From the NCBI GenBank assembly GCA_051599415.1, contig AP039693.1, positions 434,001 through 498,000 on the forward strand: a DNA stretch of 64,000 bases, written 5' to 3'. This DNA comes from Savitreella phatthalungensis. Lineage: Eukaryota. A program made the translations under genes and the position numbers. Shown in pieces: positions 13,923-63,395 of this stretch; the first letter of the stretch is position 1; every line of letters begins with the position of its first letter. The notes under the pieces were generated by a model that saw only the letters and a program-made list of their open reading frames with translations, ran no database searches and was not told the origin of the DNA.

Positions 13923-15467
13923 ATGTCGCTGATCCAGAGGTGGAAGAGAATTGTCGCTGCTCCCAGCGCTGCTGCTTTTACCAATGACGCCGAGCTCGTT
14001 TACGTGACATCCGCTCACCGCATCGCCGCACCACAGCGCATTGCACAGCAGCTGCAAGCCAATCATAAAGGACTCGCATCATGCAAGGACAAAGACGTTT
14101 TCATTCACGAGACTGATAGCACTCTCGTCCTTGAGCAGACCGTATCATTCAACCTCGACTTTGACAACAGCGCAGACAACTTCTTCATGCCCGGACAAGA
14201 CGACAGTCTGTTCTCTGGCAAGCCAGTCCAGCTCGTCATGATCTATTCTGTCGTCTTCTCCGGCGAGCAAGTCAAGCACGTCCGCGTCTTCTGGGACCAG
14301 GCAACAGTCCTGAAACAGCTCGGAGTCATCGGTATTCGTGGTCGTGGCTGGCCAGTGTATGACGGTTCGGACCAGTGCCGAGTGCTCGAGGTTGGCGCTG
14401 GCAGTGCCAAAGCGTCCGCTGCAACAGCACCTGTGACAGCCGATCGTCCCCTGACAGCTACCAAGGATCCTCATGCAACCCTTCGCCTCTTCGAAACTGT
14501 ACAGGAACCCAAACGCCAAACGTATGAGGCCATTGAGACACGTGACTCATGCAAACCCACAAACCGTGACTATGGCGAGCTCTTTGTCAATGCAGACAGC
14601 GCTCGACCGGACGACGCTGTAACTCGTTCCGGTAGAGGTGCGCTTCGCCAGGCATCGCTGAACCCGACAAGCCTGCCAGAGGAGGCGGAAGCTCCTCGGA
14701 AGGCTATCGCTCCTTCCGCTGGCAGACTTGCCCGCGACTCGCACTTCGAGCTGAACGGCGACGAATCCCAATACAACAACAAGGAGAATATGCACTCAAA
14801 GGCTGGCGTAATTGATCACAACGCAATGTCCTCATGGGACACGCCGGAGCACAAGCAGCAGTACAAGGCTCGACCGGATCTACAGTCTCACTTCGGTCCT
14901 CAGGACGGCAATGTCGATGCAGATGAGGAGACTGCTTCAAGAGCCGCACAGCGCGGTGCTCTCCATGGACGCGACTACAACATGGCTCGGCGAGGCCCAC
15001 CGTCCGCGTCGTTTGATGCTTTTAGTTCAGGCGAGTCTGAGCCTGCAGGCAACATCCACAACAGGGAGTACAACATGGCTCGTCGTCCGCCACCGCAAGC
15101 TCAATTCAGCGCATTTGAGGAAGAGCAGGCCCCTGTCGGTGGCAATGTCCACGGGCGTGAGTTCAACATGGGTCGTCGCGCGCCTCCGTCGGCACAATAT
15201 GACTTCACCACAGCCAGTGAGCTCGACAGACCGATTCGAGCCTCTCAGCAGCAGGAGCATGAGCACAAGCAAGCTCCAGCGCCACAGGAGGAGAACATCC
15301 ACGGTCGCGAGTTCAACATGGCCAGACGTCCACCACCACAGGCGCAGTTCGACTTTGTTTTTGACGAGGCAGACAACACAGCACGATCCAAGGACAACAT
15401 TCACGGAATGGAATTCAACCGTGCTCGCCGTGGCCCCCCTGCGCCGCAGCAGTCGTTGTGGGCTTAG
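13923..15467 (+). CDS. Hypothetical protein with NTF2/SnoaL-like N-terminal domain and C-terminal peptide repeats
   Basis: 514-aa ORF. VKHVRVFWDQATVLKQLG is typical of fungal NTF2-like proteins; a low-complexity tail carries five repeats. Confidence 0.7.
   Translation: MSLIQRWKRIVAAPSAAAFTNDAELVYVTSAHRIAAPQRIAQQLQANHKGLASCKDKDVFIHETDSTLVLEQTVSFNLDFDNSADNFFMPGQDDSLFSGKPVQLVMIYSVVFSGEQVKHVRVFWDQATVLKQLGVIGIRGRGWPVYDGSDQCRVLEVGAGSAKASAATAPVTADRPLTATKDPHATLRLFETVQEPKRQTYEAIETRDSCKPTNRDYGELFVNADSARPDDAVTRSGRGALRQASLNPTSLPEEAEAPRKAIAPSAGRLARDSHFELNGDESQYNNKENMHSKAGVIDHNAMSSWDTPEHKQQYKARPDLQSHFGPQDGNVDADEETASRAAQRGALHGRDYNMARRGPPSASFDAFSSGESEPAGNIHNREYNMARRPPPQAQFSAFEEEQAPVGGNVHGREFNMGRRAPPSAQYDFTTASELDRPIRASQQQEHEHKQAPAPQEENIHGREFNMARRPPPQAQFDFVFDEADNTARSKDNIHGMEFNRARRGPPAPQQSLWA
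14961..15440 (+). repeat. Five coding repeats of about 19 aa, consensus N-I-H-G-R-E-F-N-M-A-R-R-P-P-P-x-A-Q-F
   Basis: Copies start at about 14961, 15051, 15144, 15294 and 15396. Confidence 0.9.
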
Positions 15468-15602: not shown

Positions 15603-16388
15603 TCATGATGCGGTGATGCCCTGTGGTGTGGCTTGCCTTGCAGCTCTCCAACGGGCAACGTATTCGCGCATTCGCTTCTCTGCGGCAATCCTCGCACTGT
15701 TGCCTGACGTCCTGACATTTCCAGGAATAAGTGATCTGCCCGATCGAATCCATACAACAACACCGATCTTGCCATTGCGATTCTTGAACTCGCATCTGGC
15801 AGCCTCGACAGGAGACGTATGTGAAGCAAAGCCAAGCTTGCCCTTCTGTCGCGACACCACAGACTTTCTGCCAGCACCTTTTCGTCTACCCAGACGACCA
15901 GACACCTGTAATTTAAGTCCATCGACCGCCGCGCCAAGCGGCGTGCTCTTGATGAATCGCTGTGTGAGTGCTGTGAATGAGCGCTTCTTGCTCATGAGAG
16001 CGAGGTACTGTGCTGCGATTTCTGCATTCAGGTACGGTGCAGAGAGTGGCTGGACATCTAGCTCAATCTTTGTACCCTTGCCATACACCTTCTCGAGCAC
16101 TTTCGACTTCAGCCCATCGAGCGCGTATGAATTCGATGGCACACGCACCACTGACGGCTTGCACTCCTTTGACTCGTGGATGTACATCCTCAATCGCACG
16201 CGCCCAGGAGCACGCTCGACCTGTGGTGTAGAGCACAGATAGTGTTGAAAGTAGTGTTTCAGTAGCTTTCGAGCCTCAGCATCACGCTGCGTCACTGCAT
16301 TGTAATCTCGTCCTGTAAAGCTGAAAGTCGGCGTCCATCGTGAGGGTTTCAGAGCGATAGCCTGAATTGGCTTCGCTGTGAATGACAT
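15603..16388 (-). CDS. rps3: Mitochondrial ribosomal protein uS3m (rps3/Var1/S5 type), nuclear encoded
   Basis: KIELDVQPLSAPYLNAEIAAQYL, GLKLQVSGRL and NRNGKIGVVVWI match fungal mt-rps3 and the S3 C-terminal motifs. The protein is very basic. Confidence 0.8.
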   Translation of the reverse strand: MSFTAKPIQAIALKPSRWTPTFSFTGRDYNAVTQRDAEARKLLKHYFQHYLCSTPQVERAPGRVRLRMYIHESKECKPSVVRVPSNSYALDGLKSKVLEKVYGKGTKIELDVQPLSAPYLNAEIAAQYLALMSKKRSFTALTQRFIKSTPLGAAVDGLKLQVSGRLGRRKGAGRKSVVSRQKGKLGFASHTSPVEAARCEFKNRNGKIGVVVWIRSGRSLIPGNVRTSGNSARIAAEKRMREYVARWRAARQATPQGITAS

Positions 16389-16811
16389 TGACGTAGATCC
16401 TGTAGAATCCCTCTATCGAACAAGCTACGCTTCGACGTATGTCGTGAGTACTGGACTTTGGAGTAATCTCTGTCTTGACTTGTTGCTTGAAGGACTGTGG
16501 AAGCGCTGCATCTTTTTTCACCAAAGTCACGTGTATGTGAAGCTGCAGTTCAAGACTCAACACTCGAAGGACTTTAGTCGAAGATGCACAAAAGGATACA
16601 CTTCAAGGACATCATCATCATCATTCCCCTGACAACGTTGAAAGTCAAGTCACTACCAAAGTCACTGTGCCGTCAAGTGAGGTGTTTACACAGCCGTGCT
16701 TAATCCTCTATCGCTGGCTATCTATTCATATTGCTTCCTTTGCTGCTGCAATCAAACATGACCTCGAACTGCATGCTCATCTACTAGACCTATCTATATT
16801 CCTCTGAAGAT

Positions 16812-18524
16812 ATGTCACACTACGGCGGGAGCTTCGGGCATGCTACGCTGCCAACCAATGGTGAACCATATCCACTGCTCATGCCATTGCTCAGAGATCC
16901 ATTTTCACTCGCCGAACGCGTCTCATTTGAGTACTTCCAGCATTGGTTATTGTCACAGGCTCCGCAGACGCCCTTACCACCACCAGACGGGCTGAAAGAG
17001 CGATACGCCCACTATTTGACTGACCTGACGTGTAGGACAGCACGTGCATATGTCGCTACGCACTCAAGTGAGGCCTGGTTTGCAGACCTGTACTCGCCGC
17101 AGCCGGAGAGTCGTCCGAGCGAGAAGCTCGTGAGAGAATCCGCAAGCGTGCTTGATCTTCAGAGCTTCGGGTCAGACTGGTCACCATATGCTAGTCAAGG
17201 TCAAGCGGGCTTCCCGATGGACGAACCGCTTCCCGAGCCGACTTTCCCGCAAGTCACAGAAGCAAATCGCCACATCGTTCTCGTTCGCAACGTCCCGGCG
17301 CTTGTGACGACGCAAGAACTCAGAAAGTTCATTGAGGAAAACGCTGTGGACGTTGATCACCTCTCTCTATCGTCAACACGTTCCAGAGACGGTCTCAGAT
17401 ACGGCATGCTGCGAATAGGACCAGACTCGAGCATCGATTCGGCAATTGCAGCCGTCAGCAATCAAGCGTTCAACAGCGAGCGAGCTGGACAAATCTCATT
17501 AATAGCTACCAAATGGCATGGCACTTTCCACGACAAACCTATCATCCTGTTTCCCCAGCTGGATGACGACAAGGTCGTCAACGAATTGTGGCAGCGGTGT
17601 AAAAAGATCATTGATGACTGGCGGACACGCGACAGCACCGATGGTCTCGATCTCCAGCAGCATCTGAGCAAGTTCTTGGAGGGAGCATCTTCACTCGAGA
17701 GCAGCGGGAGCTCAAATCGCTATCTACTTGACATCACCATCGAGTTCATGCGTCATGCATATTTCTTCGACTTCTGGACAATGCGTAGATACGCGAGTCT
17801 GGAAGATGTCCTATTGCATGCGCCGTCATACAAGCGATCTATGGTGCCACCAGACAGTCCTGCTGCAGCCGCAGTCCTCGAGCGATACACTGCCTGGCGG
17901 CGCAAGTTTGATGCTGCTTGGACCGCTTACAGCTCTCCGGAAGATGGTCTCGCAGCGTACTCACGTGTCATGGGCCGGATCGAACCTGCTCCGGAACACC
18001 TGCCTGCACTGCTCAGGAAAGTTGAAGAGAAGGAGGACCGAGGCTGGCGTTGTCTCGTGCCGCAGGAACCTGTCTGTCGCAAGCTTTTCCAATCGCAAGG
18101 CTTCCTGGACAAGCACATCGCAAAACGACACGGAGGTTGGCTCGCAGAGCGCGTACTCGCCGCCATGTTGGCAAACTACCTGCTAGACCAAGATCGTCCG
18201 CCGAGCTATGCGATATTCAACGAACCTCCCTTACCACCGCTGCCGCCGCCTGGAATGGCCCTGATCGAGGCGCCTGTTCCGCAGCTTCCTTTTCCACCAG
18301 TTCCTATTCAGCCGCATCACATCGCCGCTGCCAAAAACATGTACACTTCACCTTCACCTCGGAACGGCAGGCCAGGTCAAGGTAACAACCGGCACAGATA
18401 CGGCCCTTACGACCGGCACGGTCATGGTCATGGTCATGGCGGTAGAAGGGGAGCACCCGGGGCAAAGGACTATCGAGACCTCGATGCTTCCGGTCCGGAC
18501 AGCACGCCTGAGCTCAATTACTAG
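16812..18524 (+). CDS. SERRATE/ARS2 (Pir2) homolog, nuclear cap-binding complex effector
   Basis: RRM-like segment (IVLVRNVP), C2H2 finger WRC..CRKLF..FLDKHIAKRH, and C-terminal YRDLDA..ELNY motif. Confidence 0.8.
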   Translation: MSHYGGSFGHATLPTNGEPYPLLMPLLRDPFSLAERVSFEYFQHWLLSQAPQTPLPPPDGLKERYAHYLTDLTCRTARAYVATHSSEAWFADLYSPQPESRPSEKLVRESASVLDLQSFGSDWSPYASQGQAGFPMDEPLPEPTFPQVTEANRHIVLVRNVPALVTTQELRKFIEENAVDVDHLSLSSTRSRDGLRYGMLRIGPDSSIDSAIAAVSNQAFNSERAGQISLIATKWHGTFHDKPIILFPQLDDDKVVNELWQRCKKIIDDWRTRDSTDGLDLQQHLSKFLEGASSLESSGSSNRYLLDITIEFMRHAYFFDFWTMRRYASLEDVLLHAPSYKRSMVPPDSPAAAAVLERYTAWRRKFDAAWTAYSSPEDGLAAYSRVMGRIEPAPEHLPALLRKVEEKEDRGWRCLVPQEPVCRKLFQSQGFLDKHIAKRHGGWLAERVLAAMLANYLLDQDRPPSYAIFNEPPLPPLPPPGMALIEAPVPQLPFPPVPIQPHHIAAAKNMYTSPSPRNGRPGQGNNRHRYGPYDRHGHGHGHGGRRGAPGAKDYRDLDASGPDSTPELNY

Positions 18525-18698: not shown

Positions 18699-19526
18699 AT
18701 GAGTCACGCTGGATACGACAGAGTGATTGACAGTGACGTCGACACTGTGTCTCCTCCCAAGTCAGTTCCCCCGCCACGCACACCAGCTTCCATCTCCAAC
18801 ACCACCCCAGCCGCCGACTTGTCATTCCACCAGTTCCACGCCACCGCTGACACGCATCCTACCCACCAAACTACGTCAGAGCCTCACACTCGTCCGATCT
18901 TCGACATCACAACAGAGACTCTCCTCTCGAAACTACACGCTGCGGTGAACCCATTCAGCCGGACGGCACTCGCGCCTGCGGAGGACGGGTACGGTGATGT
19001 GTACTGGGTTGTGTGGGGGAGCTTGAGCTTGTGTGGGTGTGTTTATGGGTCGAGTACGATGGCTGGTGGGATGGGTGCTTGGCAGACGCTGACGACCGCG
19101 CTCGTCCTCATCCTCTCGTACACCACAGCACTCCCACTCATCCTCAAACTCACCACCACCATCACACTCACACAAGCCTTCACACCAGTAGCCTACGCGA
19201 ACACGCCATATATCCCAGCACTCGCAATCGCAGCGCTCCCGATCGATATGGTAGCAGGTAACACGGCAGGCGCTGTTGTCAGGACTGTGGTGATCGGGGT
19301 AGCAGCGGCGGTAGGGGTGTTGACGTGTACTGTGCCGGTGGTCGGGAGGAAGTTGGTGGGGAAGGATCTTGACTGGTTGATTGAGAGGCTGCCAGGGGGA
19401 GCGAGTGTCGAAGGCGGTGGGGTCGATATCGATGGGACAGAGAAACGGAAAGGGAGAGTGATACTGCTGGCGCTGATTGTGTGTCAGCTCGCTTACGGCG
19501 CAGCCATAAGGCTTCTGTTCTACTGA
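18699..19526 (+). CDS. Yip1-domain Golgi membrane protein (YIP5/YIPF1-like), divergent
   Basis: MSHAGYDRVIDSD start, FDITT and DVYWVVW (compare DLYGPFW), and about five hydrophobic helices. Confidence 0.6.
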   Translation: MSHAGYDRVIDSDVDTVSPPKSVPPPRTPASISNTTPAADLSFHQFHATADTHPTHQTTSEPHTRPIFDITTETLLSKLHAAVNPFSRTALAPAEDGYGDVYWVVWGSLSLCGCVYGSSTMAGGMGAWQTLTTALVLILSYTTALPLILKLTTTITLTQAFTPVAYANTPYIPALAIAALPIDMVAGNTAGAVVRTVVIGVAAAVGVLTCTVPVVGRKLVGKDLDWLIERLPGGASVEGGGVDIDGTEKRKGRVILLALIVCQLAYGAAIRLLFY

Positions 19527-59658: not shown

Positions 59659-61791
59659 ATGCTTAGAGCTTCCAGACCATATCATTTACTTATCAGGTCT
59701 GATCATCGCAGCCACCTGCTTGTACGAGCTCACAGAACACCAGCGCTCTCCTCACAAGGCCTTCTCAGGCACACCTCCCCTTCAACCTCTCTGCATCGCT
59801 TGCATACTATGACAGACGCACCACCTGCAAAGCGCATACGGACCGCAGACTCCACAGGGAATACAAGTATTGAAGTCTTGGATGGTCCCGAGTCGGCCGG
59901 GCCGGACTCGAGTACCTTCATCCCAATCTCTGAGCAAGCTGTCGGTATCCGCTGCTTCGTCCGTGATGACCTTCCTCGCTTCACCTGTCAGCTCAAGCAG
60001 CTCAACTCGGACTTCCAAGTGTTCGAGGTCGATCCACAGGGGAAAATCGTCCGACTCGAGAATGTGCCCCGGAATGAGGATCTGCTGGCTGAGCAGGCAG
60101 AGCACCGACAAGTCGAACAGAAGCGGAAGCAGATGCTTGAGACCAAGTCTTTTGACCTTGAATCAGATACTGCCAAACGACTTCAAGCGGCGCTCGGTCA
60201 ACGCGTCTGGACAGAGCTTCTCACATTGGCAGGTGTGACGCCAGTCGCGGACTCTCCAGCAACTGTCTCGACAGAAGTCATCGATGACAAGGAGACACGA
60301 ACGCTCATCCACAAAGGGATTCGTGAGGTATTTGGGGATGGTCTAGACTCGACCTCTGCGAAGGACAGCACGATTGTAGTCCGGGTGAAGCGGGCTGGTA
60401 AAGGTCGTGGCGCTCAGGGTGGCGGGTTCAATGCTCGAGCGCGCTGGGAGCATCCGGGCGACTTTTGTCTCTTCACGCTTTACAAGGACGGCAGAGACAC
60501 AATGGACGCCGTCTCTGCCGTCGCATCTCAACTCCATCTGACCACGAAAGCATTCGGATTCGCAGGCACAAAAGACCGACGAGGCTGCACCACACAGCGT
60601 TTCACAGCCTACCGCGTCCCGGCCACGCGACTTGCCAACTGCAATCGCTTTTTAGACGGCATTCGCCTTGGTGATTTTTCGTACACGCGCAAGGGCTTGA
60701 CGCTGGGCGATCTATCCGGCAACCGATTCAGTCTCGTTCTTCGCCATGTCCAAGGTATAGACGAGGCAGCCATCCACGAACGCTTTGCGACGATCCGAGA
60801 CCGCGGTTTCATCAACTACTTCGGTCTTCAGCGATTCGGCACGTCCAACATCGGTACGCACGAGCCAGGGATCCTCCTGCTGCGCGGAGAGTACGAACAA
60901 GCGGTCGAGATGATCATGACCGCTTCCGCTGGAAACCTGCGTGGGCCAGCGGTGGCCGCGAAAGCGCACTGGCAGAATACGCACGATCCAGACGCCACCT
61001 TGCGATTGATGCCGTCGCGCAACGTTGCAGAGACTTCCATGCTCAAGCACATGGTCCAGGACATGCGCAAGCGCGCAGACGACAGCACTACCACCCCTGC
61101 TACTATCACTGACTGGCACGGCGCTTACATGGCCATTCCACGGAACCTCAGGACCATGTATCTCCACGCCTATCAGTCGTTTGTCTGGAATCACGCTGTC
61201 TCCGCGAGGATCGAGCAGTTCGGTTTCACGCCTGTGGAAGGTGACTTGGTGATCGACGATCGCACAGCTGTAGGCGAGGATGGTGACGGCAACGAACACG
61301 TATCACAGTATGTTCGCGCTCGAGCACTGACTAAGGATGACCTTCATCTGCACGCCATCACGGATATCGTCCTGCCTTTGCCAGGATACGATGTAGAGTA
61401 TCCCGCCAACGAAACTCTACGCAAGGTTTACGTTGACGTCATGCAACAGCACGGACTGGACCCCTTCGACATGCGCCGCAAGCTCAAAGACCTCTCCCTT
61501 CCAGGAGCGTACCGCAAGATCGTCAGCAAGCCAATCGACCTCGAATTCTCCACCCTGCATTACCCTCCCCCGAAGCTCGAGACAGACGCTGAGACTGGGC
61601 GCGAGCGAACGATCGAGGTCCAGCTTGCTGCGACTGACCTCGATCGGCTGGAAGGTCGAACAATTGAAGTCCCAGCGTCAGAGGGTGGGACTACGCTGTT
61701 AGCAGTCAAGTGTGAGTTCGGCTTAGATACAGCCGCGTACGCGACGATGATGTTACGTGAAGCTGTAGATGCATTACCTCGTCAGATCTAA
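59659..61791 (+). CDS. PUS7: TruD-family pseudouridine synthase
   Basis: SDFQVFE, FAGTKDRRG (catalytic Asp), GFINYFGLQRFG, HAYQSFVWN and YATMMLRE. A second ATG lies at 59809. Confidence 0.95.
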   Translation: MLRASRPYHLLIRSDHRSHLLVRAHRTPALSSQGLLRHTSPSTSLHRLHTMTDAPPAKRIRTADSTGNTSIEVLDGPESAGPDSSTFIPISEQAVGIRCFVRDDLPRFTCQLKQLNSDFQVFEVDPQGKIVRLENVPRNEDLLAEQAEHRQVEQKRKQMLETKSFDLESDTAKRLQAALGQRVWTELLTLAGVTPVADSPATVSTEVIDDKETRTLIHKGIREVFGDGLDSTSAKDSTIVVRVKRAGKGRGAQGGGFNARARWEHPGDFCLFTLYKDGRDTMDAVSAVASQLHLTTKAFGFAGTKDRRGCTTQRFTAYRVPATRLANCNRFLDGIRLGDFSYTRKGLTLGDLSGNRFSLVLRHVQGIDEAAIHERFATIRDRGFINYFGLQRFGTSNIGTHEPGILLLRGEYEQAVEMIMTASAGNLRGPAVAAKAHWQNTHDPDATLRLMPSRNVAETSMLKHMVQDMRKRADDSTTTPATITDWHGAYMAIPRNLRTMYLHAYQSFVWNHAVSARIEQFGFTPVEGDLVIDDRTAVGEDGDGNEHVSQYVRARALTKDDLHLHAITDIVLPLPGYDVEYPANETLRKVYVDVMQQHGLDPFDMRRKLKDLSLPGAYRKIVSKPIDLEFSTLHYPPPKLETDAETGRERTIEVQLAATDLDRLEGRTIEVPASEGGTTLLAVKCEFGLDTAAYATMMLREAVDALPRQI

Positions 61792-63395
61792 TTCTCGATC
61801 ACCTTCAGACCGCCGAATAAGGTCTCTCCTCCCTTCGATTCAGACCCTGACAAGGCTGCTCCTGAAGCTGCAGTCGTCTCCCGTTCCTTCTCGACCAACT
61901 TTGCCATCACGCGCAAGCAGTCGTCTACGCCGATCTTGTCCTTGGCCGACATGATGACCACGGGCGGAATGGTCGTCGGTTCCGATGCGTCCGGGTCTGT
62001 TATACGTGTATCCTCGAGCGCACACGCCGCGATTGTCTCCAGAAGCGCGGCGAGCTGACCTCGAGCACTAGGTAGGTCAGCTTTATTTGCCACCACCATC
62101 GTCCTCCGCCGCTCGAGTCCCGGCGAATGCAAAGCTAGCTCCTTCCGTAGTAACCTATACACCCGAGCAGGATCGATACCTGTCACTTCCCCGCGCGGAT
62201 CAAGCACCCCTCGATCACCATCTCCCATTTCTTGTGATCGTGACACCGTGCTAGTCGTAGCAGACAGATCAAGCACGATACACAGTACCCTTGCCCGTTC
62301 GACGTGGCGTAGAAAGTCGTGACCAAGTCCACGATCATCATTCGCCCCCTCAATCAACCCAGGAATATCAGCAACCGTGAATGATCTCTCCTCACCGAGC
62401 TTCCGACCGACCTTGACACCCGGCATTGTGTCTTGACCAGCTCCGGCACCGGAGGCAGGAACGGCAGCGTAGCTGACAGTGCCGAGATGTGGAGCGAGCG
62501 TTGTGAATGCATAGTCTGCCGTCTTCGGTCGAGCGTTTGAGAGTGCTCGGAGGAGGGTAGACTTTCCTGCGTTGGGTGCACCGACTAGACCGATGTCTGC
62601 GATTGTCTTGAGCTCGAGAACGAACTTGCGCCGCTGTCCGTCGAGCCCACGGGACGCAAACTTGGGCGACCGATTGTCAGTCGTCAAGAAGAAGCTGTTT
62701 CCAAATCCACCGACACCACCACGGCACAGCAACACAGGCTCATCAATCGGTGTCACCTCATCAAGGTCCAGCCGGAGAAGTGCCGCCTCAGGCTTCACCT
62801 TCGGTGTGTAGAACGGATTCGGGCTGCCCCTCGGGAGAAGAGCTCTGTACTGCCGACGCAGGATACGCTCTGCTTCTTTGAGCCTGTCTCCTGCATGGTT
62901 ATCGTCTTCCGACCGAGGGTAGTGTACCCAGAGGCCGCGCTTGGGCTTGTCGTATGCTGGCTCCTCCGAACGCCGCTCCCCTTCAGACAGCTCGACCTCC
63001 TGCACGACAGTCCCGACAGGCACCTTGATCAGCAAATCGTCGCCCTTTCGCCCATTCATGTTGCTCCCGCGGCCGTGCATGCCCACACCAGACCGCGCAC
63101 GGTACCCGACGTCCAGCGACGTCAGACCGGCGACCGCTGCAACGTATACATTCCCACCATGGCCGCCGCTCCCGCCGTTCGGCGGTCCCTTTGGCAGGAA
63201 CTTCTCTCGCAGGAAAGACACACATCCGTCGCCACCGCGGCCGGCCTCAGCGACGACGACTGCATGGTCTCTGAATGATGTCCCGCTGAATTTGTGTGAC
63301 AGATCCCGAGACGTCGACGTCGCCAGTGACCGTTTCCCGTACCGCGCTCTGCATGCCGCACAGACATGAGTCGTGCGTCGCAAAGTGAGCAGCAT
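61788..63395 (-). CDS. MTG2: Mitochondrial Obg-family GTPase
   Basis: Presequence, Gly-rich Obg fold, GAPNAGKST, YAFTTL, DIPGLIEGA and NKAD. Confidence 0.95.
   Translation of the reverse strand: MLLTLRRTTHVCAACRARYGKRSLATSTSRDLSHKFSGTSFRDHAVVVAEAGRGGDGCVSFLREKFLPKGPPNGGSGGHGGNVYVAAVAGLTSLDVGYRARSGVGMHGRGSNMNGRKGDDLLIKVPVGTVVQEVELSEGERRSEEPAYDKPKRGLWVHYPRSEDDNHAGDRLKEAERILRRQYRALLPRGSPNPFYTPKVKPEAALLRLDLDEVTPIDEPVLLCRGGVGGFGNSFFLTTDNRSPKFASRGLDGQRRKFVLELKTIADIGLVGAPNAGKSTLLRALSNARPKTADYAFTTLAPHLGTVSYAAVPASGAGAGQDTMPGVKVGRKLGEERSFTVADIPGLIEGANDDRGLGHDFLRHVERARVLCIVLDLSATTSTVSRSQEMGDGDRGVLDPRGEVTGIDPARVYRLLRKELALHSPGLERRRTMVVANKADLPSARGQLAALLETIAACALEDTRITDPDASEPTTIPPVVIMSAKDKIGVDDCLRVMAKLVEKERETTAASGAALSGSESKGGETLFGGLKVIEN

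Follow-up and report, generated by a model that had tools for sequence, protein, structure and literature searches.

How did a gene for a mitochondrial ribosomal protein come to lie among the nuclear genes of the fungus Savitreella phatthalungensis? The gene, rps3 (its product uS3m, also Rps3 or Var1), was found in a stretch of 64,000 nucleotides (the window), and the original prediction took it for a functional transfer from the mtDNA of the fungus itself. Relocation of rps3 to the nucleus alone would be one more case of a known phenomenon; it is the origin of the gene that matters. One study lists rps3 as a gene that has seldom relocated to the nucleus, with fewer than 6 transfers, and states that its transfer works experimentally in yeast (PMC10809612). 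Nuclear rps3 has been described in Capnodiales whose mtDNA is without the gene (Wai et al. 2019, as cited in PMC7902536), and an earlier study reports no nuclear rps3 in Dothideomycetes and a free-standing mitochondrial rps3 in Taphrinomycotina (PMC5626475). Fission yeast mtDNA is likewise reported to keep rps3 (PMC10085805). For Taphrina, a description of the mitochondrial genomes gives 14 proteins annotated with MITOS, a metazoan tool (PMC4007546), a count that is consistent with there being no mtDNA rps3, but that comes from a metazoan annotator.

An intact nuclear gene for uS3m

The gene and its immediate surroundings are as follows.

15603..16388, minus strand: nuclear, single-exon uS3m (Rps3/Var1) gene of 261 aa, from ORF, Pfam and fold
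15741..16238, minus strand: VAR1 domain match, residues 51-216, spanning the KH-like N-domain strands and helices and the uS3 C-terminal domain
16389..16811, no strand: 423-bp spacer between the uS3m gene and the divergent ARS2-family gene
16812..18524, plus strand: ARS2/SERRATE-family gene (Pfam scan), the divergent neighbour, given for context only

The ORF runs from an ATG to a TGA with no internal stop and encodes a strongly basic protein (pI 10.9; 49 K+R versus 16 D+E), as predicted. Tryptophan is encoded by TGG (3 codons, with no in-frame TGA), there are only 7 Asn and the GC content is 53.2%, bearing out the claim that the gene is free of AT/Asn-rich bias. Its GC3 of 52.8% is slightly under the range of 55-68% seen in 27 other ORFs of the window; its mean log RSCU is 0.083 versus 0.077 ± 0.030 for window ORFs, and its synonymous codon preference is thus host-like. 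The surroundings are nuclear too. Besides the ARS2-family gene, Pfam identified Lon, Methyltransf_8 and a Zn2Cys6 factor as neighbours, all of nuclear type, and all 21 further long ORFs scanned in the window had Pfam matches of an ordinary nuclear kind.

The identity of the protein was assessed by profile and structure. It matched Pfam VAR1 (PF05316) with 79.7 bits, above the cut-off of 33 bits (E 4e-22), and the sole other Pfam family at E<=1 was Ribosomal_S3_C. The three motifs on which the original prediction relied are all present, the first with a slightly longer spacer than had been written. NCBIfam scores were 59 bits of 114.5 for rpsC_bact and 19 of 150 for uS3_euk_arch. An AlphaFold2 model (pLDDT 77.7) retrieved ribosomal small-subunit chains as its top Foldseek matches (E ~1e-13, probability 1.00), and the protein as modelled has the complete two-domain uS3 fold; the ESM Atlas is concordant with this identity and silent on origin. 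Fungal mitochondrial-type S3 sequences separate from the outgroup with support of 100/100 (here and below, SH-aLRT/bootstrap), the Savitreella protein falling on the fungal side. Two other identities were rejected: uS5m, since only VAR1 and Ribosomal_S3_C appear at E<=1 and there are no Ribosomal_S5 domains, and cytosolic uS3, which is a separate gene on another contig of the same assembly (C8). A bacterial origin was also discarded, with at most 45 bits to solved bacterial S3 versus 137 BLAST bits to Mucoromycotina, and by the tree.

Within the 12.7-Mb assembly the uS3m gene is the single VAR1 match, and neither an MRP-S24 match nor cox1 or cob was found there; mtDNA is not part of the assembly. 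The gene is a nuclear uS3m and not a NUMT. The protein very probably functions as uS3m, which in the mitoribosome belongs to the head of the small subunit, by the mRNA entry channel (PMC7337963), and its mitochondrial location and import would follow from its family and its conservation. The mtDNA-encoded Var1/Rps3/S5 proteins of yeasts, fission yeasts, Pezizomycotina and Basidiomycota belong to the same family (PF05316) and presumably have the same role; unlike the nuclear gene, they are AT/Asn-biased, and they are 24-26% identical to the Taphrinales group.

Orthologues in Taphrinales-type fungi

Among 1094 candidates we found 11 close orthologues with 54-69% identity. They include Taphrina deformans (CCG83169.1) and a cluster with Protomyces lactucae-debilis (ORY85626.1), whose contigs measure 63 kb and 677 kb, respectively; the two are ~61% identical to the Savitreella protein, with equal start and length. 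By these orthologues, Savitreella is probably itself a fungus of Taphrinales type. Together the 12 Taphrinales-type sequences are conserved over their full length, with long invariant blocks that point to purifying selection. This conservation, the intact frame and the host-like codon use agree with the view that the gene is old and recoded rather than a NUMT. The Taphrina and Protomyces orthologues are already named uS3m by UniRef, although this is a database label only, and a nuclear uS3m is on record for Capnodiales; the novelty is therefore smaller than the original prediction implied. We found no literature on the origin or location of Taphrinales uS3m, or on a link to Mucoromycotina, in a search that covered subscription papers thinly.

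As described, the Capnodiales gene resembles that of Savitreella in being a fungal uS3m in the nucleus. It is reported to be orthologous to the mitochondrial one, whereas the Savitreella gene stands apart from Pezizomycotina-type rps3 in the tree.

Affinity to the nuclear uS3m of Mucoromycotina

A profile built from the 12 Taphrinales-type sequences and run against 1.84 billion representatives gave 251 matches. The best non-self match was uS3m of Endogone (RUS22029.1; E 2.6e-42), followed by Mortierellaceae mitochondrial rps3 (E 3.9e-17) and then a Diversispora nuclear protein. The Endogone protein has 27 relatives, and 21 of these 28 sequences carry an organism name, in every case from Endogonales, Umbelopsis or Mucorales; 17 of these 21 come from contigs between 394 kb and 4.5 Mb long. 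Contamination as the source of the Endogone match is ruled out by these 21 identified species rows and the 17 contigs of at least 394 kb, and it is excluded on the recipient side as well, where the 12 sequences come from separate assemblies.

The nearest outside group is thus the nuclear uS3m of Mucoromycotina (Endogone, Jimgerdemannia, Umbelopsis and Mucorales), of ~260 aa and located on nuclear contigs. Like the Taphrinales proteins, these have no N-terminal extension, and signature residues are held in common along the length. They differ in a 25-30 residue insertion before a C-domain strand, absent from Taphrinales, and in having no Taphrinales C-terminal helix; they also belong to another phylum, at 38% core identity. 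Six other fungal groups share 24-31% core identity with Taphrinales. Fourteen residues are almost exclusive to Taphrinales and Mucoromycotina, versus 0-4 for other pairings, although 2 of the 14 occur in at least half of the 6 outgroup sequences and may be ancestral. Mucoromycotina is the group closest to Taphrinales in 10 of 13 alignment windows. An RR-type motif is also present in Pezizomycotina-like and early-diverging sequences and alone is not diagnostic. For Rhizopus and four Glomeromycotina, mtDNAs without rps3 are listed in Table 1 of PMC3630166, where Mortierella has the gene.

Scans for the locus elsewhere returned little. Of the candidate stretches in two metagenome scans for synteny, 0 of 29 and 1 of 167 carried it, and the sole locus (L004) proved to be a Mortierellaceae-like mitochondrial rps3; two scans of viral collections yielded none among 228 and none among 34. 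Targeted retrieval of ascomycete uS3m produced 10 sequences from 3065 candidates, with no identified ascomycete among them.

Phylogenetic placement

Our main tree held 54 sequences from 221 proteins over 219 columns, with fragments, near-copies and the long-branch sequence P0023 left out: 7 Taphrinales-type, 8 Mucoromycotina, 2 Mortierellaceae-type, 2 Glomeromycotina, 9 early-diverging-type, 5 Pezizomycotina-like, 2 putative early-ascomycete, 13 basidiomycete-type and 6 outgroup. Organism names were attached to Taphrina, six Mucoromycotina, Podila, Diversispora, Geosiphon and Apiotrichum gracile (one of the 13 basidiomycete-type sequences). The remaining labels, all ascomycete ones included, were assigned from motifs; the Pezizomycotina-like and putative early-ascomycete sequences are therefore ones that we take to be such. 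Schizosaccharomyces, Saitoella, Neolecta and Pneumocystis sequences lie outside the tree, which contains no Taphrinomycotina mitochondrial rps3.

Under LG+C20+F+G4 in IQ-TREE, Taphrinales and Mucoromycotina formed a clade with support of 100/99, and ascomycete-type (97/95) and basidiomycete-type (100/99) sequences formed separate clades. The phylogeny, proposed as a check by the original prediction, hence separates the gene from the mitochondrial rps3 of ascomycete type and of basidiomycetes and sets it beside a nuclear uS3m of another phylum, which speaks against descent from the lineage's own mtDNA rps3. Within the clade, Taphrinales was sister to Mucoromycotina, whose monophyly has support of 89/69. 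The three nuclear groups, Taphrinales, Mucoromycotina and Glomeromycotina, were joined weakly (85/26). The same Taphrinales-Mucoromycotina grouping appeared in a FastTree of 111 sequences, and it was kept after four-state (SR4) recoding (SH-aLRT 99, bootstrap 94), where Taphrinales nested with Endogonales at only 47-49% bootstrap. The stem branch is long (1.04).

A chimera of native and foreign halves was also considered and is not supported, as Taphrinales and Mucoromycotina separate from other fungi in the C-terminal half as well (98.5); support in the N-terminal half was 80, and the outgroup intrudes in the C-terminal-half tree. P0023, from a 5.2-kb contig, is a very divergent GC-type uS3m with its best matches in the Taphrinales group. 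It sits on the Taphrinales stem in the 111-sequence tree and forms a long branch there in a fungi-only tree without support values; it may mark a wider spread of the nuclear-type gene in early ascomycetes.

Origin of the gene

The placement of the gene contradicts the species tree with strong support (100/99, and 99/94 when recoded), and we favour cross-phylum horizontal replacement by a Mucoromycotina uS3m that was already adapted to the nucleus, with a probability of roughly 55%. An ancestor of Taphrinales, or an earlier ancestor within Taphrinomycotina, would have taken up, from an early member of Mucoromycotina, a nuclear uS3m gene that was by then adapted to nuclear expression and import. 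The native mitochondrial rps3 would have been lost afterwards, and uS3m would since have been made in the cytosol and imported with no added cleavable presequence. We infer this direction and timing from the placement of the gene.

An ancient hidden paralogue is possible but unlikely. On this account a nuclear copy was born once, beside the mtDNA copy, in the ancestor of Mucoromycota and Dikarya, and was kept only by Mucoromycotina and Taphrinales, perhaps also Glomeromycotina, while others kept the mitochondrial gene. Taphrinales is sister to Mucoromycotina and not clearly inside it, so such a paralogue would give the same pattern. The weak union of the three nuclear groups fits this history too, 38% identity would not be surprising between orthologues from two phyla, and the position of P0023 on the Taphrinales stem means that the gene may predate Taphrinales. 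The cost is high, however, since both copies would have to coexist until the Taphrinomycotina split, and separate losses would be needed in Mortierellomycotina, Basidiomycota, fission yeasts and other ascomycetes. In addition, Mucoromycotina is closer to Taphrinales (38%) than to Glomeromycotina (34%), and the best 150 of the 251 profile matches add no member to the Taphrinales-Mucoromycotina clade except P0023.

Slightly more doubtful is that the lineage, like Capnodiales, moved the gene independently out of its own mtDNA, the likeness to Mucoromycotina being due to retained ancestral residues and release from AT pressure. Such transfers are recorded in fungi and workable in yeast, and the two groups do share a low FYMINK content (0.28 and 0.30 for Taphrinales and Mucoromycotina versus 0.39-0.48 elsewhere). 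Yet other sequences of low AT bias (the nuclear Glomeromycotina copies and 3 basidiomycete-type sequences) stayed outside the clade, at 24-30% identity, and the clade itself persisted through SR4 recoding. Neither group is markedly nearer to the outgroup (23% and 20% identity versus 18-23% for others), so slow evolution does not explain their likeness. Against a joint profile of the two groups, yeast Var1 scored only 21 bits and Neurospora uS3m only 18 bits. The putative early-ascomycete sequences come closest to Taphrinales in one window (55% at columns 106-135), as vertical descent would have it, while an acquired N-terminal presequence, common in transferred genes but not obligatory, is absent.

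Topology tests bear on this reading in both directions. The species-tree constraint was rejected with AU p=0.004 under LG+F+G4 and p=0.009 under PMSF with the vertical tree as guide, at a cost of 43 and 38 log units, respectively, but not with recoded SR4 data (p=0.065); the vertical topology was thus rejected in two of three model settings. Looser constraints gave p=0.02-0.17 and were satisfied by zero-length branches that kept Taphrinales beside Mucoromycotina; among these, an ‘Ascomycota’ constraint under LG+F+G4 was not rejected (p=0.12-0.17), again with a zero-length branch beside Mucoromycotina. Constrained tree searches were short and the alignment, of 219 columns, is small. When vertical descent was simulated using site profiles and a composition shift common to both groups, the grouping arose in 0 of 56 cases and identities between Taphrinales and Mucoromycotina reached at most 25.5%, although the simulated values were 3-8 points lower than those of the real data. 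A cruder vertical simulation gave the grouping in 1 of 60, but is a weak control, as site rates were redrawn on the shifted branches. Descent from the native mtDNA survives mainly because the closest sister mitochondrial sequences are absent from the tree.

A transfer in the opposite direction, from an early Taphrinomycotina nuclear copy to stem Mucoromycotina, is very improbable. A sister relation does not fix direction, but the pair adjoins Glomeromycotina or Mortierellaceae sequences and never ascomycete-type ones, and the Mucoromycotina sequences branch as Endogonales, Umbelopsis and Mucorales, which is the order of the species tree. Finally, it is scarcely credible that the gene is a NUMT, a pseudogene or a derivative with a role outside mitochondria while the mtDNA keeps a working rps3: a classical presequence is absent and the assembly is without the host's mtDNA, but the frame, codons, modelled fold, full-length conservation in 12 sequences, single VAR1 match and nuclear neighbours all argue against it.

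Termini and import

Horizontal replacement would have delivered a protein ready for import, and two segments are candidate signals.

16308..16388, minus strand: residues 1-27, acid-free N-terminus and candidate uncleaved import signal, from alignment and composition; low pLDDT
15630..15701, minus strand: residues 230-253, Arg-rich C-terminal helix conserved in 12 Taphrinales-type sequences

Both the acid-free N-terminus and the Arg-rich tail had been pointed out in the original prediction, and both are there. The N-terminus has 4 K/R and its earliest acidic residue at position 28, with a hydrophobic moment of 0.42 versus 0.46 and 0.34 for two presequence-like neighbours, and an acid-free, basic native start was seen in all 7 Taphrinales-type sequences examined. 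Its residues are collinear with the native start of Mucoromycotina, Mortierellaceae mitochondrial and bacterial S3, so no presequence has been added to the Savitreella protein. The 423-bp spacer has no consensus 5' splice site on the uS3m strand and hence gives no sign of an upstream presequence exon. We therefore predict, from composition and alignment, that uS3m would be imported by an uncleaved N-terminal or internal signal. For comparison, the engineered nuclear version in yeast is described as carrying a Cox4 presequence (PMC7337963). The tail has 9 Arg in residues 215-261, and in its helix, which is unmatched in Mucoromycotina, R241 and W247 are invariant across the 12 sequences; the helix is a second candidate import signal, or a candidate rRNA contact.

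Implications

If replacement is the true history, the last ribosomal protein gene encoded in the mitochondria of Taphrinales was lost through uptake of a homologue and not through its own move to the nucleus. Organelle genes could then be lost because a homologue, already made importable in another lineage, arrives by horizontal transfer, and counts of independent organelle-to-nucleus transfers would be inflated. In plant mitochondria, nuclear genes derived from plastid or cytosolic counterparts have taken the place of rps13 and rps8. There, as in our proposal, a homologue already in the nucleus takes over from a lost mitochondrial gene; the plant substitutes come from the same cell, whereas that of Taphrinales would be from another fungal phylum. 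Informational proteins of large complexes are generally regarded as resistant to horizontal transfer, and this would be a fungus-to-fungus transfer of just such a protein, a core ribosomal subunit that fits a foreign mitoribosome and arrives import-ready without a presequence. Such a transfer would, moreover, record that early Taphrinomycotina and Mucoromycotina once lived in close contact. Whatever the history, the uS3m of Taphrinales and Mucoromycotina offers a natural test of presequence-free import of a soluble mitoribosomal protein.

Other uS3m sequences and window ORFs

Several further sequences came to light in the survey. Glomeromycotina uS3m was found on large nuclear contigs of 615 kb and 1.3 Mb, in Diversispora (P0021) and Geosiphon (P0216), and forms its own clade (100/99), matching mtDNA without rps3; it is probably a further nuclear relocation. 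P0027, on a 17-kb contig, is a basidiomycete-type uS3m of low AT bias with an Arg/Ala-rich N-terminal extension of ~60 residues, possibly another nuclear transfer, with a presequence. Two early-diverging-type sequences, P0034 and P0037, have a Gly/Ala/Arg/Pro content of 0.37-0.38, unusual for mtDNA genes.

In the window itself, a 514-aa ORF (13923-15467, plus strand) is convergent with the uS3m gene and carries a unit of ~17 residues five times in its C-terminal third, and a 275-aa ORF (18699-19526, plus strand) has a hydrophobic C-terminal half; both are without a Pfam or NCBIfam match. At 59659-63395, a TruD-family and an Obg-family gene converge and share 4 bases at their stop codons.
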